The notes beneath the pieces are model-generated. The model was not told the DNA's origin. It searched no databases and saw nothing but the letters and a program-made list of their open reading frames with translations. A DNA stretch of 61,707 bases, filler included, from Candidatus Omnitrophota bacterium (GTDB taxonomy: Bacteria > Omnitrophota > Gorgyraeia > Zapsychrales > JBDRMG01): assembly GCA_043812495.1 (NCBI GenBank). It is 6 parts of 6 records of this genome, joined end to end, with 100 filler letters (N's around TTAATTAATTAA, not from the genome) between each part and the next. Parts side by side here need not be neighbours in the genome. Positions count along the whole stretch, not along the records: positions 1 to 10,085 come from JBDRMG010000042.1; 5 more parts are not named here. The stretch is one strand, 5' to 3'. Made by a program: the position numbers and the translations under genes. This document shows positions 1 to 22,100 of the stretch, one piece after another (within the stretch, counting starts at the first letter, position 1; each line of letters starts with the position of its first letter).

Positions 1-2
1 GG

Positions 3-3000
3 ATATTCGGAATAGGAGAGGAAAATAAAGGCCGTGGGGTCTATGCCAACTATCCGAAAGTCAATGAAGTTAGAGATGGCAGATTGGTATATCCAGAAGA
101 ATACAAAGCGTTAAAAAGGATTGTTGTGTTTGCAGAAACACAAAGCGATGAGGAAACCGGCGATGTACGCAAAGACACGGAACTCTACGCTAACGTTGGC
201 TTATGGGTTTCTGTCGGAATGGTTATTATCGTTGCCTTGGTCATTCTTCTTGTGCTGGGGGTGAGGAAGTGGCTCAGCCGTCGTATCAACGCGCCGAATG
301 GAGTTTTAGAGGGCATCCGGGTATCAGGTGATCAGGGACTAGGGTACCCGGATATCGGGGTATTAGGGACAAAATATTTAATGGTTCGACGCGCTTCGCT
401 TGTGGTTCGACAAGCTCACCATCCCGAGCGTAGTCGAGGGACTCACCATGAATCTCTGTGGAGATTCATGTTCCGTCCCGGATATCCAGATTCCCCGGAT
501 AACCCAGTGCCGCCCCAACTAACATATCTAAACGTAGAGGGAGAAATAAATAGTACGCAAAATATAGTTGGGGCGGCGCTAGTCCCTAATACCCGGATAA
601 CCAGATCACTGATTCTACATATACTATTACTCACCCTTCTCGCCGCGGCCGTTGGTTTGGTCCTCGCTCACGCGAACATATCCATCCAAGAATTCTTGTT
701 TGGTTCCGGCGTGATTTGCGCCGGCATCGGTTTAGGACCAATTTCTCTTAAAGAAACACGTACACGCACTTCCCGGGTAGGAACCAAAGACGCTCAAGCC
801 TTCTTAAGGGCAAAGATTCTCCTTGCCCAAAGGAACAATCAAGCCGGATACTTTGAGAAGACCATCGCTCTTGTGACCACCCGCGGACTGCCGATCATCC
901 ATCTTCTTAGGGCAAGAAAAATGAGCGAGGAAGAACAAAAGTTATTCTACGAAAATGCCCTTTCCCTTTATGCTCAACTCATCGAAGCTCAGCTGTCTCT
1001 TGGCCGGTACCGGGAAGCGGCCAAGACCTCGAGAGAGGCTTGCCGCGTATTTCCAGAGAAGAATGCCAAAGGGTATGCCGCGATAGTTAAACTTCTGGTC
1101 ATTTGGGGAAATAGATTGCGGAAAAACAATGACCTTAAGGATGTCGAAAACCTCTTGGAAACAGCGGTGGAAATCGCGGGAGAAATACAGGTCAGCCTGA
1201 TCAGTATAAACTCCCTCGCGTATCTCTATAATCTAAACGGACGCTTTGAAGAAACCGTGAAGCTGGTCACCTCCCGCGGATTGCCGAACATCAACTTTCT
1301 CCGGGGACCGAGAATAGGCAGAGCGAAGATGGATAGGAGGCTGTTTGACAATAACGCCCTGTCCGTTTACATGGAATTTGTCAGGGCCCTGATGGGTCTT
1401 GGCTGGTACCAGGAAGCCGTCGCGTCTTTACAAGAAGCCCGCCGGGCATTCCCTAAGGATAATCCGCACTATAGTTATATTGCCGAGATGGTCATTAAGC
1501 AAACAAGGGATGAGAAAAATCTGGCGGATATCGAGTTGCTTTTGAAAACAACCCTGGGAATATCCGGGAAGCTTCCGATTCGCTTGACGTCTCTACGGCA
1601 TCTTATTCATTTCTATGTCGAACAAAACCGCCATCAAGAAGCTGCGCGCGACCTCCGTCAGGCCCTTGATCATGTCGCCCTGATGGATGAGACATTAGAA
1701 AGAGATTCAGAGGGATATGTATTTTACCTCAAGAATGTTATTGGATTATACGAGATAGCCGAGAAGGCGTATTTGCGTTTTAAGGAACACTATCGGGATA
1801 TCTACAATGATTATCGCCAATCCCCCATTGTTCAAGATATCGTATCCAGGCAGGCCCGCTTAAGAGCCCGTAACCATGCCCTGCCTAGTGGTGATTTTTC
1901 TGACATGAGAGCCGAGGCCTTGGCCCTGTTCGCGCGAGGCGCCTATAACACATCCGCCTATGACGAAGCTAGAGTGATTTTGATGGCCATCGACGAAAGG
2001 TTTCCTGACCGGCGGCTTAGCGGAGGCTGGACAGCCCAATGCTTCTTGGGAGAGATTGACCGATTAACAAAGTCTTCGCGCAATGGAATTACAGAAAGAC
2101 CGTCTAAAGAAAGCAAAAATGAATGGCCAAATTCCGTGAACGGCTTTATTTTTGCCGATATGCTTCTTTGGGGTGAGATATCGATCGGCATTGCCATGCT
2201 TGCGGCAACGATTCTAATCATTTTTTCGTGGCGTATAATGCAAGCGGTAAAACGTTTCATCAAGGAGATGGGTGGTTATTTTGCATTATTCACTGTTTTT
2301 CTGGTTGGCATTAGTCTGGTCAGCGCCTCATGGGCGATCATGATCTACAAAGATTGGACAAACATATTAGCCTGGTTTAATTCACAAACAGTCACTCGTT
2401 TCCTAAGCACCGCTGTTCTTGTTTTTGCTGCCATACTTGTTTGGAAAATAATTGACAGGAAAATTATGAAATGCTCTGAGTTAATATTTGCAGCAGAGAT
2501 TAGCCGGCTAGAAAAACCAATCGAGCCTCAAACCTATCATGAAGCCTTTTATGTTAAGTCGGCATTGAAAAAATTTCTCTCTTTTGGCTATTTAACCGCG
2601 CCCCATTTGGATAAGAGCGCATTAACGGATATCTTCTATGAAGAATTGCAGAAAACCTATGTATTAGAAAGATGCTGGCTTCTTAAGAGAGCTCCTCCGC
2701 TGGCATGTCTTGTTCCCGCGCGTGAAGGAGTGCCTTTGCGATTAACCATAAAGAATGTTTTCTTTATTCATGTCGAGGTTGACTATAGAGCGTATCTCAA
2801 CCATGGCTCAAAGACGCAGCTTGAGTATTTATCCAAAATACGATTGACGCATGGCCCGAGAGATTCCATTATTCTTGTTGTTTTCTTGATCCTCTTGATG
2901 TATGCATTTGGCAATGTATTGCTCATTCCACTTTACTATGAAGTTGCCCACGCACTTGGCCATGATGTGTCCATGTACTATCATGCGGAACTAAGATTAT

Positions 3001-6000
3001 TATTTGCGCTTTTTGCCGATTTATTCCTAACAGTTGCGCTCTGTGCTATGTCAGCAAGATATGCGCTAAAAGTAAGAAAGATTTTTGCTGACTATACAAT
3101 AAAATACCGACCAACAGCCGCAAGATTCTGTTTCCCATTTCCTGCCAGCGCAATGCCACTTTTCTGCCTAATAGTGATTAATATGTTTTCCTTGATTTTC
3201 GCTTATTTTGGGATAGTGAGTGTAAAACTTGCGCTAGCGTGGCCCTACATTGTTTTCTTTTTGTTCATGGTGTCTGTTCTAAGATTTTGTCAAAGAATCT
3301 GGCAGATGCGAAAACAGGAAAAATGCGAATCAATTTCGGATAATCTTCCCGGATTACGCCGTCCGCCTGTTACCAGAGTTAAGATGATAACAGTCCTCAG
3401 GGACATTCCCGGGGCGAAGAACTCACACAACTTACGCAAAGGAGACCGTTTTATCCATCGGCCAACATCACAGTTTGCCAGTGCGAGGCTTAACGTGTAT
3501 GGCTTATCGGCCCGAATCTTTGAAAAATTCCGAATACGCAAAATAAGCCGTTTCTTCATCGAGCGTATAAGAAACCATAAGCCTATGATTAACCGGTCAG
3601 CTCTCTATGTTGCTGAAGCCATCGCCGATGTTCCTGAAAAGACGCAGCGATCCTTGAAAAACAGATACCGGGCAAAACGCTATCTTACGTCCTTGCGCCG
3701 CTGGGTCCTTATTCCCATAACACTCGCGTTCGCTCTTATGCTGGCTTTCATCCCTGTGTGCATTCTGGATGCTGTCCGGCCCCATCCAAAGGCATTATCC
3801 GGTGAATTTGAAAAATCATTGGATAGGTGTCAGGGGTCATCATGCAAACGGTCCTATTATTATCGGCCGCATGTCAAAGTTTCTGAAGAGACCTCTGATA
3901 CTATTTTCACGGTTTCTAACCTGGATAATGAATTTTATTCAGGGTATATCGCGTCTGATTCCGATTCTAATCAATGGGTGAACCTTGAGAAATCTCCCCA
4001 AATGGGACGCGTGATCATACCCGATAGTGCCAGCACGCAGACACAAACCATCACCATTTTCAATCCTCCGGCATGGGATTACGCCCCATTTTATACTCCG
4101 CCGGGAATGGTGAGTCAGAGCCATTTTTATACACCAGGGGTTTCTCTTGATCCTTACTATTGGGCTTATCGTTTAAAGATCGACGGGGGTGTGGTTTCCG
4201 CAACATACACCCTGTCAGTGACTGACGATTACAAGCTCGTCTTCAACGAAGAAGAGCGCCAAGGGCTCCTTGAGCTTGACCAGGTGACACGGGACTATTT
4301 GGACCGGTATTTCGAAGGCGCCGTTGGCCTGCCGGACTACGGTGATTTTGAAACTGTCCGCTTATGGATAGAAGATTTTGCCCGCCGGAAATGGATGTAT
4401 TCTTCAGGTTCTCGCTGGATCTGGTATTGGGCGTGGAATGAATATCAGCCTGTGATGAAGGCCAGCCTCCCTGCACAACAGGATAAAACCATCGGCCTTC
4501 AGTGGGGAGGTTTGGCTTTTAACGGGTATAAATTATCGCGTTATTTCGGCGTGCCGGCGGTTGCCTATTTAGGTTTTCAAAACAGCAACGAAGATCTCGC
4601 GCTCACAAACGACGAAGACCACATGATTTTTGCCATGTATAACGATCAGACGCAGAAATTTGAGAATGTCGATTTAACAAAAAATGTTTCTCACGATGAT
4701 TCCCGTCTTTCATTCAACATCGAGACATTGATCAGAATTCTTGGCGGGGCCGTCATCGCGCTGATTCTTTTGCCTTTGATTTTTGCCACGAGAGTTCTGC
4801 AAAGAAGATGGGCCAATATCAGCGGTCTTCTTCGAAAAGCAAAAATCGGTGAAGTCGCCAAAGACAAGACTCCCGAGCCTCAGAGCGCGGCGGGCAATTC
4901 ATCTTGGCGCATGCTGACCTTCAGCCAATGGATCGCGGCCCTGGAGAAATTGAGAGAACTCTATGAAGACTACCGGGGCAAAACAAGAGGAGGGCTTCAT
5001 CAGGGATGGTGGGAGGCCTGGAAAGCATTCGAGACGCAAAGACAGGACGATGCCCTTTCTCTCAGTGTATCGCTGTATCGTCTGCTTGAGGATGGTAAAG
5101 TTCGCCTTGAACCGGTCGCAAAACAGGAAAAGACAGCAAGCTATGCTTCGGTTGATGTGCGCACAACCTTCTATCGGAATCCCATCAAGCTTATCATTAA
5201 AAGGAACGATGCTTACTTGGTTATCCCCGGGGTTAACGCAGTCCACGCGATTTCTCTCACGCAGCCGTTGGCCAAAAAATTGAATTCGGGAGTTTACGCG
5301 GTTGTTGCCGATCATTGGAAAAATGCCGGCAAAGACGATACTGACGCGCGGCATCAGTGGTTGGCTGATACTGGAATATCATCCAGAGAGCTCATTCCAA
5401 GCGCTTATGGATTGATCCTACCCGGCGTGACGGGTACCTTGGTCGAAGTGTTCGTCGTCGCGCTGCTCCTGGCCGGGCTTGGGGTTTTGGCGATAAGGTT
5501 TATCCTAAAAAGAAATCAGCAGAAACGCATCCGGGCAAAGAACGAGCAACTAACGATTGAAGCGGCGAATTTGAGCTACCTTGCCTACTCTGGCGTGCCT
5601 CTTGCGGAGCCTTTGCCCGAAAGATTATCCATTATTGCCGCCAATGAAAGTTATCGATTAAGAAGGAATGGCTGGACACCAGCGGAATCAGACGAAAGCC
5701 AGGAGCCCTCGCTTCCCGTGCGCCTCGCGGCCCAAGAGGAATTTGAGAGAGTTACCGAAGAACTTCATAAGGCTCGAGCCCAAGTGGCTGGCTGGTTTAT
5801 CTTCGGCATGCCGGTCTACGCGCTTGCCATCGGCGCCGTGATCCTCGCGATCCTGGGCGTTCTTCTTTGGCGCAAATCGGTCCTGGCCCAAGGGGAAAAG
5901 AATGCTGAAAACCGCATTTTCTGGTATGCGTGGCTTTATAAACACTATCCAATAACATTTATTATTTTAAATTGGCCTTTATTAACCATTATTGCATTTA

Positions 6001-9000
6001 CCATTTTCTGCATACTATTCAAGCGGCTTACGGGCTTTCTGAATTTCGAGACCTATATGATTTGCGGGGCACTTGGATTTTTATTTGGTGTTGTCATATT
6101 TTCAAAAGTGGTCGAGACAATATTCCCGCTTTATTTTCAGAAAAAAGACAAAATAATACCTCCGAAGATTATTGTTCTCGGAAGCCATACGCCCCTTGAT
6201 GCATATGTTTTTGTCTGCAAAATAATTGCGGTCTATAAAGGAATAAATGAAGGGGTAGCTCTCTCGGCGATTAGAATAAGACGGAACAATTCTGCAGAGG
6301 AAGTCACAATTGACATACCGTCTTTGTCAGATGAAATAATTTCCAAATCCACGGCCCGCGCTTTGGATTTGGCTTTGGAGAAACTTAAAGACACTTTGGA
6401 GAAAGAGTATTTCGCGAATCAAAACCTTGTGCTGAAATACGCGGAGTATTTGAGCCGGTGGGAGCTTCTGATAGGCCCTGACGATGACACGGCAAATGAC
6501 GACAGTGAACCAGTGTCCTCAAGGAATCAAAGCCTGACATCGGATACGGTTTCTTCTTTAAGAAGCTTCGGGCCGGTTGCGCTGGCGGCCAGCGTTGTTC
6601 TGGCTGTCCTCCTGGCCGGGCTGGGGATTTTGGCCCGCCGCTTCGCGTCGAGGCAGGCGTCAATCTTGCAAATGAGAAGAAATAATCAGGATTTGGGAAG
6701 AGGCGACTTAAGAGACTTGCCGCTTTTGTGGAGTGATTCGAGGACTTCCTTTGGCGATAGTTTACGCCACTTACTCGATAGTTCTTCGCGGATTTTGTGG
6801 AGTTCTTTCATAAATTTAGGTTCCCTATCTTTCATTTTAGACCTCCTGAGGAGAACAAATGTCAACTTGAGGGTAATTCAAGTGTTGATTAATTTCATTA
6901 ACCCGGACGCGGGTATGGTGCCGAACAATATGTTTAAAATTCCAGCTCACAAGAATTGGAATATTATGAACAGAGGCCGTGGCGATATGAATGGCATCGG
7001 GCAAATATCGGTCCGGAATAATTCCTTCCTTAACATATCGGTGAGCCAAATCCTGAGCTTCTTGAGTCGCCGGCAGTATTTCCATAGAGTATTCTTCAAT
7101 GATATCTATAAACGATTGTCGTTTTCTCCGATTCTTGGTTTGCTCTATTTCGGCAACGACCAATTCCGAAATACAAATTACGAAAGGAGCTTTACTGGCC
7201 AGCTCAAAGAAATCTCTCGTCGCTTGTTTAATCCGCAAAGCATCATCAGCAAACATTCCGCTAATAACAGACGTATCAATGTATATCCTCATGGTTTACC
7301 TCATTTCAATATTATATTAGGACACACGAGAAGTCAAGGGGAATGCGTGGCTATTGGCGGTTGGATTATTCCAGGTGTGCCCGCCTCGGCCCCACTAGGT
7401 TCATTTGGGCTCAGCGCTCACCTCACGGCGGAGCCGTGGGGGGCCGGGTTAGGCGTGCTGGTCGCGTTTGTCCTCGGCGCTGTGGTCCTTGCCGCGGTCC
7501 TGGGCGTTCTTCTTGTGCCGGGCGTGCGGAAATGGCTCGCCCGCCTCATCAACGCGCCGAATGGAGTTTTAGAGGGCATCCGGATATCAGGTGATCAGGG
7601 ACTAGGGTACCCGGATATTGGGGTATTAGGGACAAAATATTTAATGGTTCGACGCGCTTCGCTTGCTCACCATGAATCTCTGTGGAGATTCATGTTCCGT
7701 CCCGGATATCCAGATTCCCCGGGTAACCTAGTGCCGCCCCAACTAACATATCTAAACGTAGAGGGAGAGATAAATAGTACGCAAAATATAGTTGGGGCGG
7801 CGCTAGTCCCTAATACCCGAATAACCAGATCACCGATTCTACATATACTATTACTCACCCTTCTCGCCGCGGCCGCTGTTTTTGGCGCTCATGTTCTCTT
7901 TAATCTATCCGGATTGATAGTTGCTTTCGGCATGGTCGAAGAAGGAGACAGCCGCCTTTCGGAGGGCATCTTGGCTTCCGGCGCCAAGCCAAAAATCCTT
8001 CTCGCTAAAGACAACGATGTCAGCAGGAAAATCTTCGCAGAGTTTCTTGCATATAGGGGATTTCAGGTCATCAAAGCGTCCAACGGGAAGAAGGCATTAG
8101 ACGCATTCTTAGCTGATTCTGAAAAAACATTCCAGATTGTTGTAACCGATTACAACATGCCCTGCATGGATGGCGCTCAACTTGTGGCTGAGATCCGAAA
8201 AACGGATCCACTTATTCCGATCATTATGGTAAGCGGAAATATTGATATAGTGAAGAAGGAAATTACTCAAGTCGTGACCTTATTTCTGCGAAAGCCCTTC
8301 GACCCTGCAGATATCGTAGAGCATATTAGAGGGATTTTAAGCGTCAGGCAGGAAGGGAATCAGAAAAAAGAGGATAGTGACCCTCTCTATGGCTGGATTT
8401 TCTTATCCATGCCGACATTATCCATAATGCTTCCAGCTGCTGCGGTATTCCTTATTCTCAACAAGACCCTCCACCCGCGCAAAATAATGAATAACCTCAA
8501 TGATCTTGTTCAAGAACAATGGACAAGAAAATACTGGAGCTGGGGCAGTTTGGTTGTCTATTTACTTGCTTATACAATATTTGGCGCGTCTTACATGGCC
8601 ATAGCTACTTACTTTTTCGGTGGTCTATCTTTAGGCTTATTCGGCATTAATCTCAAATCCCTTGGAACGATCAAAACTATGGAAATTAGTATTATTATTT
8701 CTATAGTTGCAGCTATTTTGCATGCCTTGGGTCATATTAATATAGGTCCATACTTTTTAAATCAATATAGAGAAAGAAAAAGAACAAACATACAGAAATT
8801 AAAAGATAGAAGGCTAACCGTTCGTGTCGGTCCATATGCTAATCTCATCGCAGGTTTATTATACTTCCTTTATGTATTGATTCTTTCATCGCATTTCACA
8901 AAGAGTGCCCGCTATGAAACTTACTTTGGTATGTTCATTAATTTAGGTATGTTCCTTGGATTTGCAGTGCGTGCATCGAATGATGGAAGAGCCATATCAG

Positions 9001-10085
9001 CTTTGAATAGGCAAATTGAGGAGGAGGACAGCGATCGTTCTAATGAATCGTCCCTTGCCGGTTTTGGCCTCCTGTTGCCTTTGGGTGCGGCGGTTGTCCT
9101 CCTCGCCGGGCTGGGGGTTTTAGCTTATAAAATGTTCTCAAGGAAATCTTCGGGGGATGAGGCGCGGGTAAATTTTGATGCTGATTTGAGGAGTTCTTTA
9201 TCGCGGGAGACGAGGACGACATTGTCCATGGATGAGGCGATGGCGACGAGCAATGCATCAAATGGAGAAAAGGGGTATTCGTCCTGGAGGCTGTTTGCCT
9301 TTAAAAGATTAACCTCATCGGGCACGATGATCTTGAGCAATTTCATGATTTTGGCAATATCTTCTTTGATCTTGCTTTCGTCAAAATTCTTCTTACGCCT
9401 TAGCACAAAGCGGATTTCTAAAAGACTGACCAAAGCGGCAGATCCTTTTAGTTTGCCTTTCTCGATAAATTCAATGATTTTATGGGGTGATTCCCAGAGT
9501 GGCTTGCCGGATGCAGGATCTTCCTCTTTGGTAAGCCAATTGATGATGACATCGCTGTCAAGAAGGCAAGCGGTAAGAAGCGGATTATTTGACTTTGCCA
9601 TAGAGAGAGTTCCTCAAATTTCTGATAAACTCGGTCGAAGTGCTATCCTTGGGGACGATTCCTTTGTATTTTCCGAGAAGTTCATCGGCAATTTTGGTCT
9701 TTCCGTTGCCTCTTTTGTTGGGAATGATCTTAATCGATTGAATGGCTTCAATAGCTTCCTGCAAAGTTGTCATTTTGATAGCTCCTTTTGTAATGAGTCT
9801 AGACCATTTTCTGATGAAAGTCAAGCCGCTTTGTCTTTCCATGGCTTATTAGGACCGGGCATTATTATCTTTATCATCGCTGTATTTGGCCTTGGTGTTC
9901 TGGCTATTGGTTACTTAGCGGTGCAGAGAGAATGGCTTGTAAGACTCATCAACGCGCCGAATAGAGTTTTAGAGGGCATCCGGGTATCAGGTGATCAGGG
10001 ACTAGGGTACCCGGATATTGGGGTATTAGGGACAAAATATTTAATGGTTCGACGCGCTTCGCTTGCTCACCATGAATCTCTGTGG
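3..10085 (+). CDS. Giant modular multi-pass membrane polyprotein, partial at both ends (>3300 aa): TPR block, membrane/transglutaminase-like block, receiver domain, M50-like block, translated repeats and antisense-read TA cassettes
   Basis: The frame is open from base 3 (IFGIGEENKGRG...) through the TTG at 84 to the contig end. It contains recognisable domains: TPR-like helices ~800-2070, REC ~7990-8345 (IVVTDYNMP..DG, MVSG, RKPF) and M50-like ~8480-9030 (HALGH, GPYAN, NDG). Hydrophobic linkers recur throughout. Confidence 0.8.
285..651 (+). repeat. 328-bp intragenic repeat, copy 1 (carries a 39-bp insertion)
   Basis: Near-identical to 7548-7875 and 9948-10085; encodes INAPNGVLEGIR...LLTLLAAA; contains internal inverted repeats. 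Confidence 0.95.
403..441. repeat. 39-bp REP-like palindromic insertion (TGGTTCGACAAGCTCACCATCCCGAGCGTAGTCGAGGGA)
   Basis: Present in repeat copy 1 and absent from copies 2 and 3; exactly 13 codons; forms two imperfect hairpins. Confidence 0.8.
6686..6835 (-). CDS. Small (49 aa) putative antitoxin downstream of the PIN gene, nested antisense in the giant ORF
   Basis: Translated by hand: MKDREPKFMKELHKIREELSSKWRKLSPKEVLESLHKSGKSLKSPLPKS*. The ATG is 1 nt after the PIN stop, with a GGAGGT RBS in the PIN 3' end. Too short for the ORF track. Confidence 0.65.
   Translation of the reverse strand: MKDREPKFMKELHKIREELSSKWRKLSPKEVLESLHKSGKSLKSPLPKS
6837..7292 (-). CDS. PIN-domain (VapC-like) ribonuclease toxin, nested antisense
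   Basis: Motifs IYIDTSV, AEI, DAIHIA, LVSWNFKHIV and C-terminal ICSPQEV; GAGGT RBS at 7298-7302. Confidence 0.85.
   Translation of the reverse strand: MRIYIDTSVISGMFADDALRIKQATRDFFELASKAPFVICISELVVAEIEQTKNRRKRQSFIDIIEEYSMEILPATQEAQDLAHRYVKEGIIPDRYLPDAIHIATASVHNIPILVSWNFKHIVRHHTRVRVNEINQHLNYPQVDICSPQEV
7309..7337 (-). promoter_or_regulatory. Sigma70-type promoter of nested TA operon 1
   Basis: TTGACT (7337-7332), 17 nt, TAATAT (7314-7309); an overlapping TATAAT lies at 15-nt spacing. Confidence 0.6.
7548..7875 (+). repeat. 328-bp intragenic repeat, copy 2
   Basis: Direct repeat of 285-651 without the 39-bp insertion; few substitutions. Confidence 0.95.
9125..9601 (-). CDS. PIN-domain (VapC-like) toxin, nested antisense
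   Basis: Acidic motifs LLDSDV, LLE, FDALLVA and SRD; start overlaps the upstream small gene. Confidence 0.85.
   Translation of the reverse strand: MAKSNNPLLTACLLDSDVIINWLTKEEDPASGKPLWESPHKIIEFIEKGKLKGSAALVSLLEIRFVLRRKKNFDESKIKEDIAKIMKLLKIIVPDEVNLLKANSLQDEYPFSPFDALLVAIASSMDNVVLVSRDKELLKSASKFTRASSPEDFLENIL
9585..9773 (-). CDS. Putative antitoxin (62 aa, MTTLQEAIEAIQ...STEFIRNLRNSLYGKVK), nested antisense
   Basis: AGGAG RBS at 9782-9786; the 3' end overlaps the PIN start; the C-terminal 'S-x-E-F-I-R-x-L-R' resembles VapB-type toxin-binding tails. Confidence 0.7.
   Translation of the reverse strand: MTTLQEAIEAIQSIKIIPNKRGNGKTKIADELLGKYKGIVPKDSTSTEFIRNLRNSLYGKVK
9796..9824 (-). promoter_or_regulatory. 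Sigma70 promoter of nested TA operon 2
   Basis: TTGACT (9824-9819), 17 nt, TAGACT (9801-9796). Confidence 0.7.
9948..10085 (+). repeat. 328-bp intragenic repeat, copy 3 (cut by the contig end)
   Basis: Matches the first 138 bp of copy 2 with 2 substitutions; the contig ends inside it. Confidence 0.95.
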
Positions 10086-10326: not shown

Positions 10327-10352
10327 GGGACGTTGATGATAGTATTACACTA

Positions 10353-10381
10353 TTGACGGAAAGCAGATCAACTGTTAATAT
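10353..10381 (+). promoter_or_regulatory. Sigma70 promoter for RAYT, probably giving a leaderless mRNA
   Basis: TTGACG-N17-TAATAT with a TG extension; the ATG is 6 nt downstream and there is no SD. Confidence 0.55.
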
Positions 10382-10387
10382 GTCCGC

Positions 10388-11383
10388 ATGCCACGTCAAG
10401 CTCGATTGGATTATCCGGGCGCTCTCCACCATGTGATTGCCCGCGGAATAGACGGTATCGAGATTTTTCAAACAGAAAAAGAAAAGCAAGCCTTCCTCTC
10501 TCGCCTTAAAAAACGCCTGTCTGAAAGCAATCTTCAAATTTATTCCTGGTGCCTCATGGACAATCATTGTCATTTGTTGATCCAAACCGGAAAAACATCG
10601 CTTTCAGAATTTATGCAGTCAGTCTTAACGGGTTATGCCGTTTTTTATAATAAAGCTCATAAGCGCAAAGGATATGTATTTCAGAATCGATATAAATCCA
10701 TTCTTTGCCAAACGGACGAATATCTCTTGCCGCTCATTCGCTATATTCACTTGAATCCTGTTAAGGCCAAGGTTGTGACTTTTGACAATCTTGCTCAGTA
10801 TCTCTGGACGGGGCATAAGGAGTTGATCCAAAATTCAAAAGAAGGAATTATTAATTCTCTTGAGGTCTTAAGGTTTTTTGGCACAAAACAGAATGAAGCG
10901 AGAAAGGCCTACCTCGAATATTTGAGAAATGGTCTGAGCAGCCAAGAAGATTTTATGGGGGGAGGGCTCATCAGGAGCCTGGGAGGGATAGAAGCAGCGC
11001 AGCGAATAACTAAAGAGGAAAGACAAAATTATGATGAAAGGATTTTGGGAGAAGGGAGCTTTGTGAACGAAGTTTTGAGCCGGTTGGAAATAGTAACGGA
11101 AGAAAAAAGAAAGATATTTAAAGATATCGATGAATTATTAGAACGGTTAGAGCGTTATTATCATGTTAAGAAAGAAGACATTTTGAGAGGTCAAAACAAA
11201 AAAGTGCGGGAAGCAAGAAATGTTTTGGTATATTTGAGCAATGCCTGTTTAGGAGAAAGCTTAACAGCGATAGGGAAAATACTCAAAATTAAACAGTCCT
11301 CAGCCAGTAGGGCTAAGCGGAAAGGCCAAGAGGTTGCGGCTCAAAAGGCCATTCTTGATCAATTGTTAGAAGATAGAAGATAG
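10388..11383 (+). CDS. REP-associated tyrosine (Y1/HUH, IS200-like) transposase with C-terminal DnaA-like HTH
   Basis: N-terminus MPRQARLDYPGALHHVIARG; HUH motif in MDNHCHLL; FQNRYKS; YIHLNPV catalytic Tyr region; helical C-terminal HTH. Confidence 0.9.
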   Translation: MPRQARLDYPGALHHVIARGIDGIEIFQTEKEKQAFLSRLKKRLSESNLQIYSWCLMDNHCHLLIQTGKTSLSEFMQSVLTGYAVFYNKAHKRKGYVFQNRYKSILCQTDEYLLPLIRYIHLNPVKAKVVTFDNLAQYLWTGHKELIQNSKEGIINSLEVLRFFGTKQNEARKAYLEYLRNGLSSQEDFMGGGLIRSLGGIEAAQRITKEERQNYDERILGEGSFVNEVLSRLEIVTEEKRKIFKDIDELLERLERYYHVKKEDILRGQNKKVREARNVLVYLSNACLGESLTAIGKILKIKQSSASRAKRKGQEVAAQKAILDQLLEDRR

Positions 11384-11515
11384 GGGACGTTGATGATAGT
11401 ATTACATTATTAAATAGCATGAGAAGGCACGAGCTATTCAAAAGAAATCAATTCACCCGATGCGTCCCCTGAATACTAAACTATCATAGAATCATCAACG
11501 TCCCCTGCTAGGACG

Positions 11516-12060
11516 TCAACGTCCCCTGCTAGGAAAACCCCCGTATTCCAGAAGATTTTCCAAAGCATGATTGGCGCTTGGTTTGCAATCAAGAATGTTA
11601 AGAATAAACATACAGGCGCCTTTAGTCATATTAAGATCAATTTCCGGATTTCCACATGACTCCCTTAGGGTTAAGGGGAACAAATGGAAGGTAAAATACC
11701 GCCCGGAAAGGCTATTCCCGGTTCTTCCGGAGATGTCTATTTTTGCCGAACCTGCTACGATGAACTGATAGCGGTTCTCTGCTTCATCAGAAATCCCTTT
11801 AAGGATGTTCTTCCATTTTGGCATTTTATAGATCTCATCAAAACAATCCCAATGCCTTTTTTGTTTTGATGGGGAAGATCTCGCGTAAAGAATAATTCCT
11901 GTTGTTTGTAGCGTTCCCGCACCGTTCGCAGGTCCCATAGATAATACAGTTGCTGTGTATGTTATTGGTTCAGCTTTTCTTTAGAAAGGGTGGTCTTAAC
12001 GGATTGACGAGAACCGGTCACGAAGCGCATCTGCCGGCCCCATTGACGGGAGAAAGCAAT
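11516..12060 (-). pseudogene. Frameshifted, truncated AAA+ ATPase (AAA_14/DUF4143-type)
   Basis: Fragments in different frames: GRQMRFVTGSRQSVKTTL (degenerate Walker A), LYYLWD, FDEIYKMPKWKNILKG, VAGSA, SLSGR, LLEYGGFP. It ends abruptly at a REP copy. Confidence 0.75.
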
Positions 12061-12723
12061 CGAGAATAATGACCGCTGGATTATATGACTAATTTATAAT
12101 ATCGTTTAAAATAGTCAAGGATATTTAATGGTATGATTTAAAATGGTCAGATATTCTGGATGCTGAGAAGAAAACGAACAGAGGACAAAAATGGGGACGT
12201 TGATGATTATATTACATGAACAGAAATCCTGAAAAAGCATAAACTAAAAATCAGTCATCAACGTTCCAAAATAAGGGATTTTTCAATAAGCGCTTGAGTT
12301 ATTCAATGAAATGACAGACAAAGCCACGCGAATTTATGTGGACTGAACAATAATGAGCGAGGGAGCTAAAAAATACAAAACCCCCGATGCTCTCATCATC
12401 ATTTGCAATTTCCAGAAGTATCATGAAGTCATCAACGTCCCCTAAATATTAAATGTCCAGAATAAATTTCTATGAACGAGAAATGTCCACTCTGTGATTT
12501 TTTATCATCTGGTAGATGAAGGTGAATATTCTTGTGTATTGGTTTTGAATTTTATGCGCGAAATAAATCATTTGCTAGGCAGATTTTTATGTAAAATTTA
12601 AGAAAATCTCCTCGAAAAACCAATTTTCAGAAAAAATAAAAAAAATTTTTTAGAAATTTTCTAAGATAATTGTAACCCCCTTTATTTTCATATCTTATGT
12701 AATATCCAATCAGTCCTGTTTCC

Positions 12724-13117: not shown

Positions 13118-16100
13118 ATGTTTAACAGACTGGACAAATACAACAATCTGGATTCTGATGACTCTGACCGTTTTGATGAATATGACGGTTCTAAGGGTTC
13201 TGATGACTCCGGTTTTGACGGTTCTGATGACTCCGGATTTGATGGCTCTGATTTTGAGCCGGAAAAACAGCCGCAAGAGCAGGAGCCTTTTAAGAGCCGC
13301 TTCAAATCCTGGATCAGAACCGCTGCCTTGATTGTTGTCCTGGTTTTTGTCCCCGAACAAATCAGCTGGGCTATTAATTATAATCCTTATGTGCTGCATA
13401 AGCGCCAGGCGGCTCACTATGTCGATCCGGATGCCTCAAAAGAAGACCTGACGTCCGCGCGCATTGCCGGCAATGTCGAATATTTCCTGCGCCAAATTTC
13501 CTATCAACAAAACCCCGAACTTCGCTTAAGACTGACCAATAATAATCTCTCCGGAGCCGAATCCGATTCAACTGCGCCCTCCATTTTGATCACCTCACAG
13601 CGGTTCTACACGGACCGGGAAATCGACACAATTTACAACTGGCTGCGCGAACCGAGCATCTACCCCTTAAACTGCAGTATCTACGCCCTCAAAGACATTC
13701 TCACAAGCCATGAGATTGACACAACCCTGGAAGAACTTTCCGTGGTCTCATTGCTTGCGGATTTGATGAATGACATCATCCGCCCCGGTGAGCCGAAACT
13801 CAAGACTTCATTGTTTGCCATCAACGAAGTGGCCAAGGCTTATGGCCTCGATTATAAAGCCCTGAAAGTCCTTCCGTATGAGCTTTGGACCATAAAGACG
13901 CCTTTTATGGCCAACTTGAAAAGCGAGCACTTTGTCATGGTCACAGGCATGGATGAAGAGAATGTCTATTACACCGATATCGGCCAGGCCAAATTTATGC
14001 CCAGAGACGTGTTTAGCAATGAATTCAGCGGTTTTGTTTTGGCTCCGCCTTCCGACAATCTTCAGGAGGCCCGGCTGGTTTCAGAGTCCATGATGGCCTT
14101 TGTCTGGGGCTCGCAGTACCGCCACCGTGAAGGTAATCTGCCCGGTCTGTATACGAATTCGGACATGCTTGCTTTTGGAGCTATGACAGCACTTTCCTTT
14201 GCCATGTCAGTAGATATGAACCAATATTTCGTTCAATCGGGCGCGAACGAACTTTTTGGTGCATTCGCCGAATGGAAAGTGGCCACTGGAAAATGGGATG
14301 TGGATGATGCCGCCTTGTTTACAACGGTCGGAAGCAGCGCGGTTGGAATGGGCTACAAAGGATTCAGCAAACCACAAACAGAAATACCATATGCTCCTTA
14401 CTCCACAGGCCAGAAAATCGGCCATATGTTTGAAGGCATGGGCATCGGCGGCTTGGACGGTTTTTCGAAATATTACTTAAACAAATTAATTATTGATCCG
14501 GTTACAGATAAGATTACGGAAAGACTTGATATCCATTCGGACATTGTTAATCAGGGAATCAAGATGTTGTTAACCCGGGCGATTTCCGCTCCCCTGAGAA
14601 TAGCTTCGCTTAAAATGATTGATTTTGCGGGTGATAAGCTGCTGCCGGGATTTGATAAAGGGTGGTATCAGGATTGGTGGGCTTCAGCCGAAATAAAAGA
14701 CGGCCAGCAGGTAAAATTTTCAGACATGGGCTTGTTTGACAGCATGTGGAGCGAATTCAGCTCTCCCGACAACTTGACCTCCATGCTTTATACGGCAGGG
14801 AGCACGACGGTCCAGTATTCTTACAAACAATTGATTGATCCCGATTATGACCCCTCAAAAGATCTTTTGGCGGGCGCCCTGATGGATTGGACCATCATGG
14901 AACTGTCGGAGATGGGTTTAAAATACCTGGCGCCGGATTATTATCGGCAGATGAAAGAAGAAGAGAACAAAATTAGAGAAGATGCAAAAAAGCTGGGCAA
15001 AGAAATAGGCGCGACCGGCTGGAAACTCCTGGCCCAGAAAGGCCTTAAGGTCATGGAATTAAGCATCATCGCCCTGGCCTATCAAAGCCTCATGAGAAAA
15101 TATGTTAAGACAAGCAAAAACGACGACAAACCCTTTACGCCCATGGAATTTCACGCCCTCGCGTTTTTTACCACGTCTTTGGCCTCGGGAACCATCGGCG
15201 CTCTTTTGGGCAGGGAAGATGACACGAGCGGCGGTGACGTAGAAGATCCAAGCTTTTTCAAGAAAGTATGGTCCAATTTCTCTGTTGAATTATCCAACAT
15301 GTCCAACAGTTATTTTTCGTATGCCGGGTCCGCGCCCGCGGCCGGGCAAGGCTGGAAACTTCAGGATTGGGACCGATTCATCGATAAGTCCGTTGAGTTT
15401 ACGGGCTTTACGCCGGAGTTCGCCAAACAGATGAACTCCACGTATGACATGATGAAGCGGCAGAACGCCATTTCCTCAGACCCCAAGTCGGACGAAGAAC
15501 TGGACAGGCAATTTAGACAGTTGGTCATGGATTCCCTCAGCGCAAGCAGACTCAACGCGGCCACCTACATGTTCCAGGAACTGGCCAAGGCAAGTGTCCA
15601 CAATTTTTATGACGGCTTGAGCTTCGTCGGAACCCGCATTGCCGGCAATCATTTCAGCCCCCACTGGATGGGTCTGGATAGTCGCTTTTGGAATAAAGGA
15701 AAAATTAATTCAACGGGCACGGCCGAAAAAGAGGCAACAAAAGTAGTCATGTACACCCTGGGCGTCCAGCCGGTCGGCTCATTGATCCAGATTCACTATA
15801 ACGTCTCGGGCTCATGGAATCCCAGAAAAATCGCCGCGCCGATCGGCATGATTTTTGACCCCCATGAAGAGACTTCCGGCCGGGAAACTTCCGGCGGCGG
15901 GCCCGGCTTGCGGCTATTATTAAGCACAGGCGTCGAAAAGAAGATTTTATTCAGAAACGAGGAAGCAGGCGATTCTCTCCAAAACGGATTTCAAGAAAAA
16001 TTTCAGCTGAGCACCGATTCCTCGTTTGCCTCAAGCCAGGAGTCATCGCTCGCTTCCAAGAAACGTCTATTCATCAAATACTTCAGCGAAAGAGAGAACA

Positions 16101-19100
16101 ATATCCGAGGCTGGGCCAAGTATGATTTAAGCCTCAACCCGCCCAAAGGATTGGATGAAAGATTCGCGGCCAAGGGAATATCAGAAGGCGGAACGATCGT
16201 GTCCTATATCTATGATCTTAACGATCCCCGAAGCGCCCAGGACAAATCGCATGAGCTCAGCAATCTCATTTTGCTTGGGCCGCAGGAAAGAGGAAAACCC
16301 TCCTTCTTTATTTTTTCCCAAGAGACGGACGCCGGCCTGGAAAAAATAGGCGACCTTTCGGTCGTCATGAACCATGAATTCAAAGACGGCAACACACTCG
16401 CCTTGAATTATCAGAAAGTACGAATGGTCGACGGAAGTTCGGTCATTCTCTATAACCGTTCGGCCGGCCAAAAAGGCAAAGACGCGAGCGCCTATGTGAA
16501 CCTGATGGTTTCCCCGGCCGACTTTGCGGCCAAGGCCATGGCGGGCCAGGGATTTTCCATTCATCTGTTTAATCTGGACGGCAATATCATCATGGCCAAA
16601 GCGGGAAAGACCGGCGGAGAAAATGACGAGTCAGGCACAACCATCAAAATGCCGGCTAACGAAATCGACCTTACATTTCCCAACGCAAACGGGAATAATA
16701 TCAGCCTGGCTTTACTCTCGAAAATGTTAACGGACAATAAGAATCAAGAGTTCCTTGCCCTTGCAAAGGAAAAGGAATTCTATGGCCGTCTTAAAGAAAA
16801 CCCCGAGTTGTTGCTGGCTTCCCTTGATACGTCAATTTCTCGTGAGGTGTGGGAGAGTATATGGAGCTCCGAAGAATCTAAGAAAAAGCAGCCGGACAAT
16901 TACTACGCCACTCGAGGCTCCAAGTATGGCGAAATCCTGATCGAGAATGAAAACGGAGACATAGAAAAGCTCGACCTCATGGACGTGCTATTCAGCTTCT
17001 CCGAAGGGAAAAATCCACAAGGTCTTTTGGTGGGCTCTTTGGGTCTGGATTTTCTGGGCGTGGCCAAAAACGGCGCGAACGTTTCTGTTTACGCGAGCGG
17101 GGACTATCTTAGGGAAAATTTTGGGGAGAACTATCGTCAAGGCGCCGAAAACGCTTTGCAGGGGCCGACCGCTCAAGCGGATCCGGATAGCCTCAATATT
17201 AGAGTGGATGATCCCAAGGGTGACGTCGGCGGTTTTGAGCAGGATCAAGAGAACGATAAATTCGCCTGGCGTTTGAGAAAGGCCGGTGACCAGGTCTATT
17301 TTCACGGCCCTCGGCTGAGTCCTCTCGAGGACCCCATGGGCGTGCGCAACGAAAACATCGCCCGGCCCTACTGGAAAGCGGGATTGGTGTATAAAAATGA
17401 AATGCCGCATGGCGCCGAAATGACTTTACCCGTAGGTCTGGATCAATACGGCAGTTTATCTATCGCTCAGATTACCAAAGTGACGGGTAAAGACGGAACA
17501 AATTCTTACAAGGTTTACAATCCTGAAACAAAACAAGAAGAAACAGTCCAGACCACCGACGAATATCTCCTCCAGCTCGGCCGCACCGCCATGAATATCG
17601 GCGGAAGCCAGGTGGTGGATCATTTTATTTCCTACGGCCGCTCCTCAGAGCGCGAAGAAAATCTCGAATTTAAAGGCAAGCATTTATCTTTAGGTTTTGG
17701 AAAAGGCTTTGTCAAAGTCGCGGACAAAAGCCTCAGCGAAGATCAAACCCAAATCGTTGAGAAGCTGTCGATGCCTCAGATGAAAGGCGCAACCTATGGG
17801 AATAATTTCATCGACGGCCGCCATATGGACAGCAAAGAAATCACCGATGGCTTTAAACTTAAGAAAAATATCGTCTCCAACGAAAGCCTGAAGCGCGCGG
17901 TCACAGGCCTCAATAGAGAGTACTCGGACATCTTAGAAAATCTTCTCATGCAGGCCTCTGATATCGACGAGAACGCGGGTATCGATGACCTTCGCCAGAA
18001 AGCCGGGGCCATCGATGAAGCGACCGCGAGCGCGGATGAGTTGAAATTTAAAAAAGCCGTTGGCCAGCTGTCCGGGGCCTGGGAGAATAAAGATTTTCAA
18101 AAAATCGAAAAGTTTTCAACGCGTTTTGATTCTGACAAAGATCAGAATGACAGGGAAGACAAAGACGCGTTCCATTTCAGCCAAGAAGACCAGGATAAAA
18201 TAGATCAGTCCATCAGCGATTATAAGTCCAAGAAAGCCGCCGGCCAATTATGGGGCGCGACGGATATCAATGTCATCACAAAAGCCATGTGGAATCTCGG
18301 CACGGAAGACAGAGAAAAAGTTCAAAAAGCCCTGGCCGACGAAAGATACCGCAGCGTTCCCTTGGTGATTGAAGGCGACTGGGTGGACCGCTCTCATGAA
18401 GACCAGACAGATTTCAGCTTTGTCACGATCAAGGCCACAACGTATAACAAAGACGGAATTCCCAAAGAAGTTGTCCTGAGGGATCCCCGTAAATATGCCA
18501 AGAGTCTGGATTTCGTCATTCCTGAATCGGGGCTTTACGTCACGGGTTCCGACGGGGAGCTTAAGGATTTTGCCGGTTCGCCGGACGGCGAATATACCAC
18601 CTACTCAGGCCGCATGGAGTTCACCATCGACGGCAATTCCCCGTCCAATCTCAAAAGCCATCAGTTCACGCCCGGCGCCTATTGGAAGTTGCCCGCGGTC
18701 GCCGGCAACGCCAAAGACGGAGATTTCAACCGCTACATGACCCGCGACTGGAAGTGGTCATCGGGTAAAGGCGCCCAAGGCGCTATCTATGTGGATTTAG
18801 CGGGCCGCGCCATCGGCGAATTCGGGGTCGGCAAGGATACCGTGTCCAGGCTGCCCTTTATCAGCCAAAATGTTTCGTCCCGAACGCAAAGAACACCCAC
18901 ATACCTCCTCGTTCTGCTCATAGGAGCGGATCCTCAAATATTGGAGGAGCAGAATGTCGCAAGTCTCCTTAATGCCGAAGGAGGTCAAGAGGTATTGAAT
19001 AAATTGGGTGAGTACTTAAGGAAAATCGGTGTCAGCAAAGTTGATGTTGAATTGGCCAAACAGAGCTTAAAAGCAGGCGAATACGATAAATTTTATTCAG

Positions 19101-22100
19101 ACTATTACACGCAAGAAGTCCGTCAATCAACAGGACTTGATCTTTCCGGCGATAAAGACAAAGCCTTTTTGCTCGCGGAACATTCCGCCAAAATCAAATA
19201 CGGCGGCGATTTTCTCTGGAAGCGGGGCGCGGCATGGACGCCGTACCACGGATTCGATAGCGCCGGCGGCCTGTCCAACAATGACGGAACCAAGCCCTAT
19301 ATGCTCGAAACCATGTACACACTCGGCAAAGACGGGCGGAAAAAGATTGTCTACCAAGAGAAAAATTCCGATATCGACATCATCCTCGGACCTTACCGCG
19401 ATCCCATTCTCGTGGCCGATCACCTGACAAACTTTTCCTTTGTTGCCGCTGGCGAAGGGGAATCTGCGCTTCACCAAGGCACAGTGCAGGTTGAAGCCCT
19501 TAAGGATGGGCAGGGAAACGACATCACGCCTTTTTTCAATAAATACACAGCCATCGCGACCGGCGAAGACCAAGATAGCGTGGCCCCGGGCAAATTCGTT
19601 TTGCAAACGGGCATGATCAGAGAAGACGGTTCTGAGCAGATGAACGTGGACCAGGTCTTTGCGGCCCGCAGGTACATAACAACGGAAAAAGGCGCGTATC
19701 TGGGCCTGCCGGGTCTGGGCTTAAGAAAATATTCACCAGGCGAAAAGGGCGGTCCTGTTATCCATTATATGCCCCAGGCCACGGCAGACGGGCAAACAAT
19801 TGACGTGCCCCTGGTTCTTGAGGGAACCAAAGAAGAAACCGTCTTTGGCGAGCTTCACGCGGGCATTGTTCCTGACGATTACAAGGAAGGAAAATACAGC
19901 GGTTCAGTGTTCTTAAAAAGTTTCGCCAAAGGCAGCTCGTTCACCCGCGGCGAGAATAAAGGCTTCGCTATCAATGGAGTTATCGTCGGTTATAACGGCG
20001 CGGATATTCCGGATGAAGGAACCGAGGTCAGCGTTTCGCCTCTGATTATCTCTGATGGGGGAAAAACCCACGCCCTCGCCTATTCCGGCCAAAAGGGCGG
20101 GTATTGGTCGAAAAAAGATGAGTCCTGGATTCATCAGTGGGCCAATGAGGCAGGTGATAAAAGCTCGTTCGATGTCGCCGTTCGCAATATCAACACCGGA
20201 GACGCTGATCCCGACAAATCAAAAGGTCTTGAGAGCAAATTTCCGGAGAGCGTTGATAAAGAATTAAACAAACCGGAAAACCGGTATATCCATTCCAACA
20301 TCACGTTAATGAACAATGAGCCAAAACGCTCATTTACATTAAGCGGTGTTAATTACGACGTGCATAAAGCTCAAATAACCAGCTTGTCGGCTTATGATTC
20401 TTCCTTCGGATCCATTGCCTCGCCGGGTGCGTTTATTCTTCCCACCAAAGCGGGCATAGTCAGCGGCGGGGTTACGCAAACAGTCAGCAAAGAGGCTGCC
20501 GATAAAGCCCTGGCGGGCTTAACACAAAGACTGTTTGACCCAAGCGAAAATTACGAAAAAATTCAAGAAGCAATCAAGAATATCGAAACATTTATTTCAG
20601 AGTCCACGTTAAAAGACGGCCAGTATTCTTATCGCCACGGAAAAGAAGGCAAGCCCTTTGATCTCAACGGCATAAAGCTGTTTAAAGGAAATGACGACGA
20701 CCAGGCCGGACTTTATTTCGACGGCAAAAAAATGTATGCCCTTGTCGGCACGTGGTTGAAGCAGGAAAGCGTGACCGATCCGAGCAAGCCCGAAATCGGC
20801 AATTTTAAGGACGGCCAGCCTATTGATCCCAGCAAGCCGTGGACAGAGACCTTCGGCAAAACGGAAATGGTCGGAAAAATCATTGATGAAGGCGTCAATC
20901 AATTTGCCTACAAGAGCCAATTGCGTAACCTGACAACCATCTCGCATAAGGATCAATATGCCGCGGACCAGTCGGCCGAAACGGCGAGAAATACCATCGA
21001 TGCCCTTCCAAACCAATCACCCCTCATGATTGCCTTGGATAATATGGGATTGCTTGAACTCTCCCTTTCGAACAGCGACGAACTTCAATTGGATTCTGAC
21101 GCCACATTTGTTACCCCGAGCCCGGCGGCCCAAGATATGTCTTTAAATAAATTTGATAAAATGAGCAGAGACTTAACAGATGAGATAGCTTTGATATTCA
21201 CTGCTCCGGGTCAGGCGACTGACCTTCAAGACACGTCTCTGGAAGAATTTACGGAAATGAACAACGGCATATTAAATGAGATGGTTTCTATCGGCGAAGA
21301 GCATGACCGGCAAATCAACCAGAAAGTTTCTCATCCCGGATACGAAAATGGTCAAATCACTCAACATATCGAGGATTTTGCCATTGTCATAGGCAGTAAC
21401 GACACGCAAGATTTGATGACGCCCATGACGACCCTGAATGAAAACGGCGAAACCGTCACCACCGGCATGAGAGGAAATATCCATAAAATAGCATATATAC
21501 CTATTGAATTTACCTCTAAAGCGGCCGATGGCGCGGAAGGCACACTTGGCGCGGTCAGTCTTTTGCAGGGAAAAGACGGCTCTATGAATATACGCGCCAG
21601 ACAAGGCAAGTGGGTCACATACGAAAATCCTTATGATATAAAATCCAGCGAAGATGCCACCCAAAAAGCCTCAGACAGCATGACGGAGCATCCATCGGGC
21701 GGGGCTTCCCGAACAGCGGCTTACAGCTCAATTCGCGGATACACCATTCTTGATTTGGACAGAGATATCGGACCCGGCGGGGCCGTGGCGTATGACCAGC
21801 ACGGCAATGTTATGCCATTTGAGGCCTTTTCTCCTTTGGCTAACGGTTATTCGCCTCATTTAGATTTTTCCTACATCAATCCGTTTTCGGCCATCATGGG
21901 CGAAGGAAGCGTCGTCTGGCTTCCGGCAGGCGAATATTCGAGGGCCGCTGTTGATCAGGAAGTCAAAAACGCAGACGGGACCATTACGACAAAAAGAGAA
22001 GATAATCAAATCGTCAATTTGAATGCCGAAGGTTTTCCGCTGGGCTACAGGCTTAAAAGAGAAAAAGGAAATTTGGTCAGGGATTATTCCGACAGCGTGG

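Follow-up and report, generated by a model that had tools for sequence, protein, structure and literature searches.

A toxin-first PIN operon nested antisense within a giant Omnitrophota open reading frame, and related cassettes with open antisense frames

A two-gene operon, consisting of a PIN-domain gene and a small basic partner gene, was found on the minus strand inside a giant open reading frame (ORF) of a Candidatus Omnitrophota bacterium (GCA_043812495.1). It lies in the window, by which we mean the whole stretch of 61,707 nucleotides that was analysed. An antisense PIN operon at this place had been pointed out in an earlier note made from the sequence alone. That observation was confirmed, and we regard the existence of the nested antisense operon as practically certain. 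Comparison with its closest relatives indicated that the open frame opposite to the operon is very probably under selection. The best explanation as a whole, to which we give a probability of about 0.65, is a self-promoted toxin-antitoxin (TA) cassette that is compatible with read-through from the opposite strand and was inserted backwards in a giant gene. The interpretation in the earlier note stood for the nested operon, the partner and the non-protein nature of the plus strand, but not for the idea that codons were replaced upon entry into the giant ORF.

The nested operon and its host frame

Within the window, which is made up of contigs placed in series, positions 1-10085 correspond to genome contig C42. 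The host frame is an internal piece of a giant ORF (3..10085, plus strand) of 3361 codons, unbroken to both contig ends. The ORF given as '3376 aa' is unbounded at both ends because the window consists of contigs joined via N-linkers. The piece encodes a response-regulator domain and TPR-like stretches; as a modular ORF of several thousand codons in an Omnitrophota host, it belongs to the Omnitrophota giant genes. The assignment of the host agrees with proteins of two genomes from the same class, which are identical to database entries named Omnitrophota or Omnitrophica. Giant frames total about 276 kb of this 1.94-Mb genome, the longest having 25,094 codons. A second giant ORF is represented by its N-terminal part at 13118-30267 (plus strand), where a C39 peptidase is encoded close to the start and a Fis-type HTH close to the end of the contig. 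Antisense ORFs scanned in this second giant ORF gave no Pfam match.

The PIN/VapC-fold gene (6837..7292, minus strand) encodes 151 aa. It matched Pfam PF01850 with 42.1 bits (cut-off 23.6; E 1.6e-10), and the best structural matches of its AF2 model (pLDDT 95.7) were VapC toxins with a Foldseek E-value of 7e-6, in agreement with its earlier assignment as a PIN gene. The active site of PIN domains is formed by three to four conserved acidic residues. In 53 sequences compared, E48 and D99 were invariant and D6 was nearly invariant. N118 was likewise invariant in the 53 sequences and may be a candidate for the fourth site. Relatives of the protein numbered 538, the closest at 69%, and a PDB sequence search gave 0 matches. 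The gene is codon-aligned with the giant frame and carries no TTA, CTA or TCA at its 8 Leu and 9 Ser codons, exactly as the earlier note had described. Its GC content is 41%.

A candidate sigma-70-type promoter (7309..7337, minus strand) is composed of TTGACT and TAATAT separated by 17 nt, with a 9/12 match. By itself this candidate did not exceed chance expectation (3 sites against 1.4 +/- 1.1 in shuffled sequences), but 8 of the 13 close loci, the window locus included, have a TTGAC box no more than 60 nt ahead of the start. A Shine-Dalgarno-like GAGGT (7298..7302, minus strand) is placed 5 nt ahead of the PIN start, as expected from the ribosome binding site noted before. In several close-clade copies, the -10 box is only 5-8 nt from the start, and this sequence arrangement suggests that the toxin mRNA of these copies may be leaderless.

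The partner gene (6686..6835, minus strand) starts 1 nt past the PIN stop and encodes a basic protein of 49 aa of an unnamed family. It is preceded by a strong Shine-Dalgarno sequence, AGGAGGT (6841..6847, minus strand), within the final PIN codons, and the junction with its ribosome binding site in the last PIN codons was similar in all 13 close loci. The reading register of the partner differs from the register shared by the giant frame and the PIN gene, again as noted before. With an iterated model, 174 of the 195 loci that offered enough room showed a partner homologue beginning at the PIN stop; the count was 57 in the first model round, and the iterated model may drift on basic helices. 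Absence of the 49-aa ORF beside other PIN homologues had been named as an argument against the proposal. The family follows the PIN gene at most loci, which indicated that the ORF is conserved and the coupled partner genuine.

The partner family had no NCBIfam match, no Pfam family was common to more than 1 of 60 members, and no DNA-binding domain was detected among the family searches. Matches in the ESM Atlas were to hypothetical clusters only (0.85-0.87) and serve only as a lead. The pair forms a conserved coupled two-gene operon, which is the arrangement of type II TA systems. From this operon anatomy, the partner is a putative antitoxin, and it is probable that the PIN protein would be toxic and the partner neutralising.

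Over 6686-7340, each of the two plus-strand frames other than the giant frame contained 14 stops. The sense-versus-shadow codon score of the plus-strand giant frame over the PIN gene was -0.11. A score equally low was found in 1 of 602 giant-frame blocks and in 0 of 964 ordinary genes, making the PIN stretch the second most shadow-like. The giant frame over the PIN gene looks, by its codons, like a shadow rather than a conserved protein, and the earlier impression of a non-protein-like translation was supported.

The operon is bordered by repeats in the giant frame that code for hydrophobic helices, one downstream (6564..6640, plus strand) and one upstream (7434..7531, plus strand). A repeat of about 400 bp with terminal inverted repeats lies in frame at 7483..7882 (plus strand), and its other copies are at 220-658 and 9883-10085. 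The copy at 220-658 has an additional hairpin-like insert, one outside contig omits 7728-7802 of the repeat, and the 27-nt overlap between the end of C42 and the start of contig C53 is inside this repeat. When the giant-frame region was used to search 168 genomes of the order for an empty slot, no orthologous module was found; the search returned nothing beyond shadows of PIN homologues and a single match to the 400-bp repeat.

A second nested PIN gene (9125..9601, minus strand; 158 aa) is in a different register, and a putative antitoxin ORF of 62 aa without family match (9585..9773, minus strand) is located upstream of it. This second operon (9125-9842, minus strand) has the small gene first and a PIN protein of a different subfamily. 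Both PIN operons of the window are bracketed by giant-frame stretches that code for hydrophobic helices. Further along the window, a Y1 (IS200-like) transposase gene was found at 10388-11383, with short direct and inverted repeats around it (10327-12443).

Toxin-antitoxin loci in giant frames and their possible role

TA loci were sought in this genome among the best 140 of 842 antisense ORFs in giant frames and with nine family searches. Eight nested TA loci were found, all antisense to giant frames: the two PIN operons of the window, two PIN_3 genes with VapB15-like partners, two HicAB pairs, one DUF433/DUF5615 locus and one DUF2283 locus. The loci found outside giant frames comprised one ParE, one DUF433 and two nucleotidyltransferases, the role of the latter being uncertain. 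The p-value of the enrichment in giant frames, 6e-6 to 5e-5, is inflated because six of the nine families had been selected once they had been observed in giant frames, and the three families chosen blind gave 3 matches, all outside giant frames.

The survey of the class covered 151 genomes and three families, and 90 of 143 matches were examined. Frames of at least 1.8 kb ran opposite to 19 of the 90 TA loci examined, and 0 of 90 were in a same-strand frame. Counting other genomes only, 17 of 88 examined TA loci, from 11 genomes, were in opposite-strand frames. The frame reached 7.8-18.4 kb in 9 of 10 loci that were widened. The antisense bias may arise in part because the codon-aligned antisense frame has fewer stops per length.

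Several nested loci were observed individually. In L296 (G542:C81), the contig is open throughout its 13.5 kb and carries two PIN_3 pairs, a DUF2283-like gene and another pair of genes; some of these cassettes are separated by a short conserved repeat. A transposase-type winged-helix/HTH gene is antisense within a giant frame at L207:8536-8967 (G000 C20). Small antisense genes without a Pfam match were seen in giant frames at L214:3783-4130 and L219:4181-4465 (G000 C53 and C65, respectively) and at L233:55-427, and a free gene of similar look in G527 likewise has its antisense frame open. One nested HicA (G000 C20:24914-25081) has an internal TAA and stays in the giant-ORF frame, indicating that nested toxins can decay. 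At C53:7954-8184, a VapB15-like gene is duplicated with a toxin remnant only, also in the giant-ORF frame.

Two views of the role of such pairs have to be weighed. An addictive TA pair would penalise deletions between the repeats of a giant gene, as TA cassettes of superintegrons do, although this is a weaker step of the mechanism proposed below. By that analogy, addiction might stabilise the giant gene against deletion, a proposal we hold only tentatively. Alternatively, the pair could be useless to the giant gene and persist as a selfish element, since most deletions removing it would shift the frame. We consider this somewhat doubtful, and it competes with the best explanation over role and not over anatomy, with odds that overlap those of the best explanation. 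It fits about as well as addiction because some nested modules have decayed and yet stay in frame, as the two examples above illustrate, and an IS-type HTH gene is nested as well. Against it, the nested toxin genes seen were mostly intact, and PMC13108822 describes TA cassettes that stabilise another long modular locus by limiting cassette loss in Vibrio chromosomal integrons.

Stop-codon absence and orientation in the close clade

For the codon test, DNA of about 200 PIN homologues was gathered. The close clade was defined as 12 rows with a support of 98 in a quick tree, to which the frameshifted L225 was added to give 13 loci; L225 and proteins shorter than 130 aa were excluded from the quick trees. 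The codons TTA, CTA and TCA, which are stops in the antisense frame, were absent from 7 of the 13 close-clade loci, occurred once in 2 and occurred 3-6 times in 4. Among distant homologues of 33-45% GC, 0 of 122 lacked all three codons (mean 6.6). Only 4 of all 189 distant homologues lacked them, and those had 48-58% GC. Six of the seven open close-clade loci were outside giant ORFs, and only 1 of the 13 close loci was inside a giant frame.

The earlier note had proposed to align the gene with non-nested homologues, expecting that these codons had been specifically replaced in the nested gene. Of the 12 closest non-nested homologues, 6 equally lacked TTA, CTA and TCA and two more had one, in contrast to 0 of 122 distant ones of 33-45% GC. 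The objection that homologues outside giant ORFs might lack the codons as well thus held for half of these close relatives and failed for the distant ones. On the sequences compared, the recoding is a trait of the clade, of single or repeated origin, and is not specific to the insertion in the window.

In the six free open copies, the antisense frame was open over 681-855 bp and spanned the operon, promoter included as in the window locus, continuing through the partner at offsets of 0, +1 or +4 nt from the PIN stop. None of their 68 Leu and 51 Ser codons was TTA, CTA or TCA, where 35 were expected. The six free copies were picked for openness, and for this reason the fair contrast is 7/13 vs 0/122. 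General avoidance of A-ending codons in the free open copies was rejected: GTA, GCA, ACA, ATA, AAA, GAA and CAA were at normal usage, with the exception of CCA. This codon, whose antisense is TGG, was unexpectedly scarce in the open copies, where it made up 4 of 46 Pro codons as against 25-30% in controls. General avoidance of TTA, CTA and TCA by the host was also rejected, as they make up 3.0% of codons in 812 ordinary genes. For the window PIN gene alone, absence of the three codons had a P of about 0.03-0.04 under genome usage and 0.003-0.005 under homologue usage, and the gene was poor in A-ending four-fold codons overall (4 of 39). The absence in this single gene is modest evidence.

The close-clade copies with stops included the pseudogene L175 and the frameshifted L225. 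At L203:5313-8902, a close PIN pseudogene lies head-on to the end of a 1002-codon ORF, and the stop of that ORF is inside the partner gene.

All six free open copies were antisense to their neighbouring genes. Omnitrophota homologues co-oriented with their neighbours (23 loci) had 3-11 stops with a mean of 6.8, and the co-oriented close copy L178 had 6. An antisense ORF with a start codon spanned 98-100% of the operon in 6 of 6 free open copies, with a length of 220-260 codons, and at most 61% in the 23 controls. In G559, a long series of co-directional genes contains two tandem cassettes whose antisense ORFs are coupled stop-to-start with the flanking genes on either side. In G520, which has one stop, overlapping ORFs still span the full stretch. 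The same open-ORF arrangement was found at L237, a PIN_3 locus of another family. Among DUF433 loci with opposite-strand flanks, 3 of 4 were not open; the opposite-strand flanked L176 had 3 stops, and 8 similarly placed loci outside the Omnitrophota set had 2-14. Ordinary antisense-embedded genes of this genome were open in 5 of 25 cases vs 25 of 832, based on home-made gene calls. With 20 of the 25 closed, a genome-wide openness rule for antisense-embedded genes was not supported.

Five close copies lie between direct repeats with lengths of 35-93 bp or more, and no border duplication was found for the window copy. At L232:13645-15738, each cassette border duplicates the first 26-35 bp or so of the downstream gene, resulting in coupled antisense ORFs; the -35 box of this cassette overlaps the duplicated ATG. 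At L095:440-860, the antisense ORF of the cassette opens like a gene start, as if the cassette had been inserted in frame just after it. This gene start presumably resembles that of an ABC-transporter ATPase.

We propose that a mobile operon with the PIN toxin gene first and the small partner second entered a module slot of the giant gene backwards, between two repeats coding for membrane helices. Selection would have acted only on the absence of stops, so that ribosomes on the mRNA of the opposite strand could cross the cassette. In a giant gene, an open cassette would avoid truncation; in an ordinary operon, it would avoid an untranslated gap and the polar effect that may follow, and this genome encodes Rho. 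Giant genes would gather many TA pairs because read-through-compatible cassettes fit giant-gene and operon sites. A broader reading, to which we give not quite an even chance, is that Omnitrophota have a class of read-through mobile TA cassettes and that giant ORFs are single-frame arrays locked by addiction modules. Cassettes of such a class would have a reverse strand that selection keeps translatable and would insert backwards without polarity or truncation, as a natural gene entanglement, and part of every giant 'protein' would be filler whose sole purpose is the passage of ribosomes.

The main rival explanation for the free copies is a recent escape from giant genes. The clade would then reside mainly in giant genes, in which stops are eliminated, and the free open copies would be escapees that have yet to decay, with idle antisense ORFs. 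This would suit the abundance of TA loci in giant frames across the class, as well as the presence of a pseudogene and a frameshifted copy among those with stops. Nested copies are also likely to be under-sampled, with gene callers skipping them and giant genes being fragmented, the latter reported in bioRxiv 10.64898/2026.06.07.730766. Six recent escapes would be required, yet just 1 of 13 close loci is nested, and neither the link with orientation nor the chaining of antisense ORFs in G559 and G520 would be explained. We consider the escape unlikely.

The antisense frame could also encode a functional protein domain or regulator in a truly dual-coding gene. The antisense ORFs of the free copies do have start codons and considerable length, and the antisense dN/dS was near 0.6 in the closest pairs. 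The two closest open pairs had a higher antisense identity as well (63% and 55%). In seven more distant pairs of the open clade, antisense identity dropped to 27-43%, the level of a non-open control pair (42%), with a dN/dS of about 0.7-1.05, while dS between open copies ranged from 0.76 to saturated and was mostly saturated. Given this high synonymous divergence and an antisense peptide that is conserved no more than the control, selection seems to act on openness and not on the peptide. Amino-acid selection on both frames was not recognised, codon use was shadow-like, and weak searches for proteins homologous to the antisense peptide, at similar or greater length, found none. Moreover, the register of the partner varies between copies and scrambles the peptide. 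Dual coding is therefore very improbable.

That a TA operon was misjoined into a long frame, or was luckily open in it, can practically be dismissed: the single-gene P is only about 0.03 under genome codon usage and contigs from independent sequencing runs were short pieces, none of which bridged the operon borders, but the frame is kept over both borders, independent runs agreed with 6945-7188 and 7103-7276 with 0 differences, and there are 8 nested loci in this genome and 17 in 11 others.

Significance and comparison with known systems

Gene calling that allows one gene per locus would miss most of the TA loci found in this genome, which are inside giant frames. Nested cassettes with a junk peptide on the opposite strand are good evidence of translation through giant frames, because stops have been eliminated although the peptide there has no meaning; they are thus relevant to the question whether giant ORFs yield one polypeptide. 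Selection for nothing but an open frame, seen at a scale of up to 450 codons despite saturated synonymous divergence, offers a clear example in nature of genes that overlap without dual coding, and points to a rule for designing antisense inserts free of polarity. The partner represents a widespread, unnamed candidate family of antitoxins.

The host gene resembles the Omnitrophota giant genes ('Archaeovorins') described in bioRxiv 10.1101/2023.11.21.568195 and 10.64898/2026.06.07.730766, sharing modular ORFs, many membrane helices, TPR and signalling domains. In the main texts of both preprints, TA genes appear only as flanking or hypervariable-region cargo and neither 'nested' nor 'opposite strand' is mentioned; 'antisense' is absent from the main text of the 2026 preprint. 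Searches of openly accessible main texts turned up no account of a TA operon inside a giant ORF.

The nearest precedent of overlap that we found is the synthetic entanglement of relE in ilvA, in which, according to PMC10359631, a toxin gene is likewise placed wholly inside another frame of a host gene and constrains mutations of the host gene. That system is engineered and both proteins are functional, whereas the present case is natural and antisense, comprises a whole operon and has an unconserved peptide in the host frame. In class 1 integron arrays, untranslated length lowers downstream expression, as stated in PMC11511950, and a pressure of this kind is proposed here for the free copies. 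The cassettes considered there are in the sense orientation, in contrast to the antisense cassettes with an open shadow frame described here.

Sedentary chromosomal integrons of Vibrio, as described in PMC13108822, share with the present locus self-promoted TA modules dispersed in a very long modular locus. Here, by contrast, the host locus is one ORF that runs through the TA operon, and the borders are helix-coding repeats, or direct repeats in relatives. With VapBC systems such as Rickettsia VapBC2 (PDB 3zvk) and M. tuberculosis VapBC15 (4chg), the window operon shares the PIN fold, the residues D6, E48 and D99, and a coupled operon with a promoter candidate. In canonical VapBC, the antitoxin gene comes first and encodes a DNA-binding VapB of a known class, whereas the window operon is toxin-first, has a partner without a known family or DNA-binding domain and is nested in another gene. 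We concluded that the window operon is VapBC-type-like and superintegron-TA-like, yet not a canonical VapBC.
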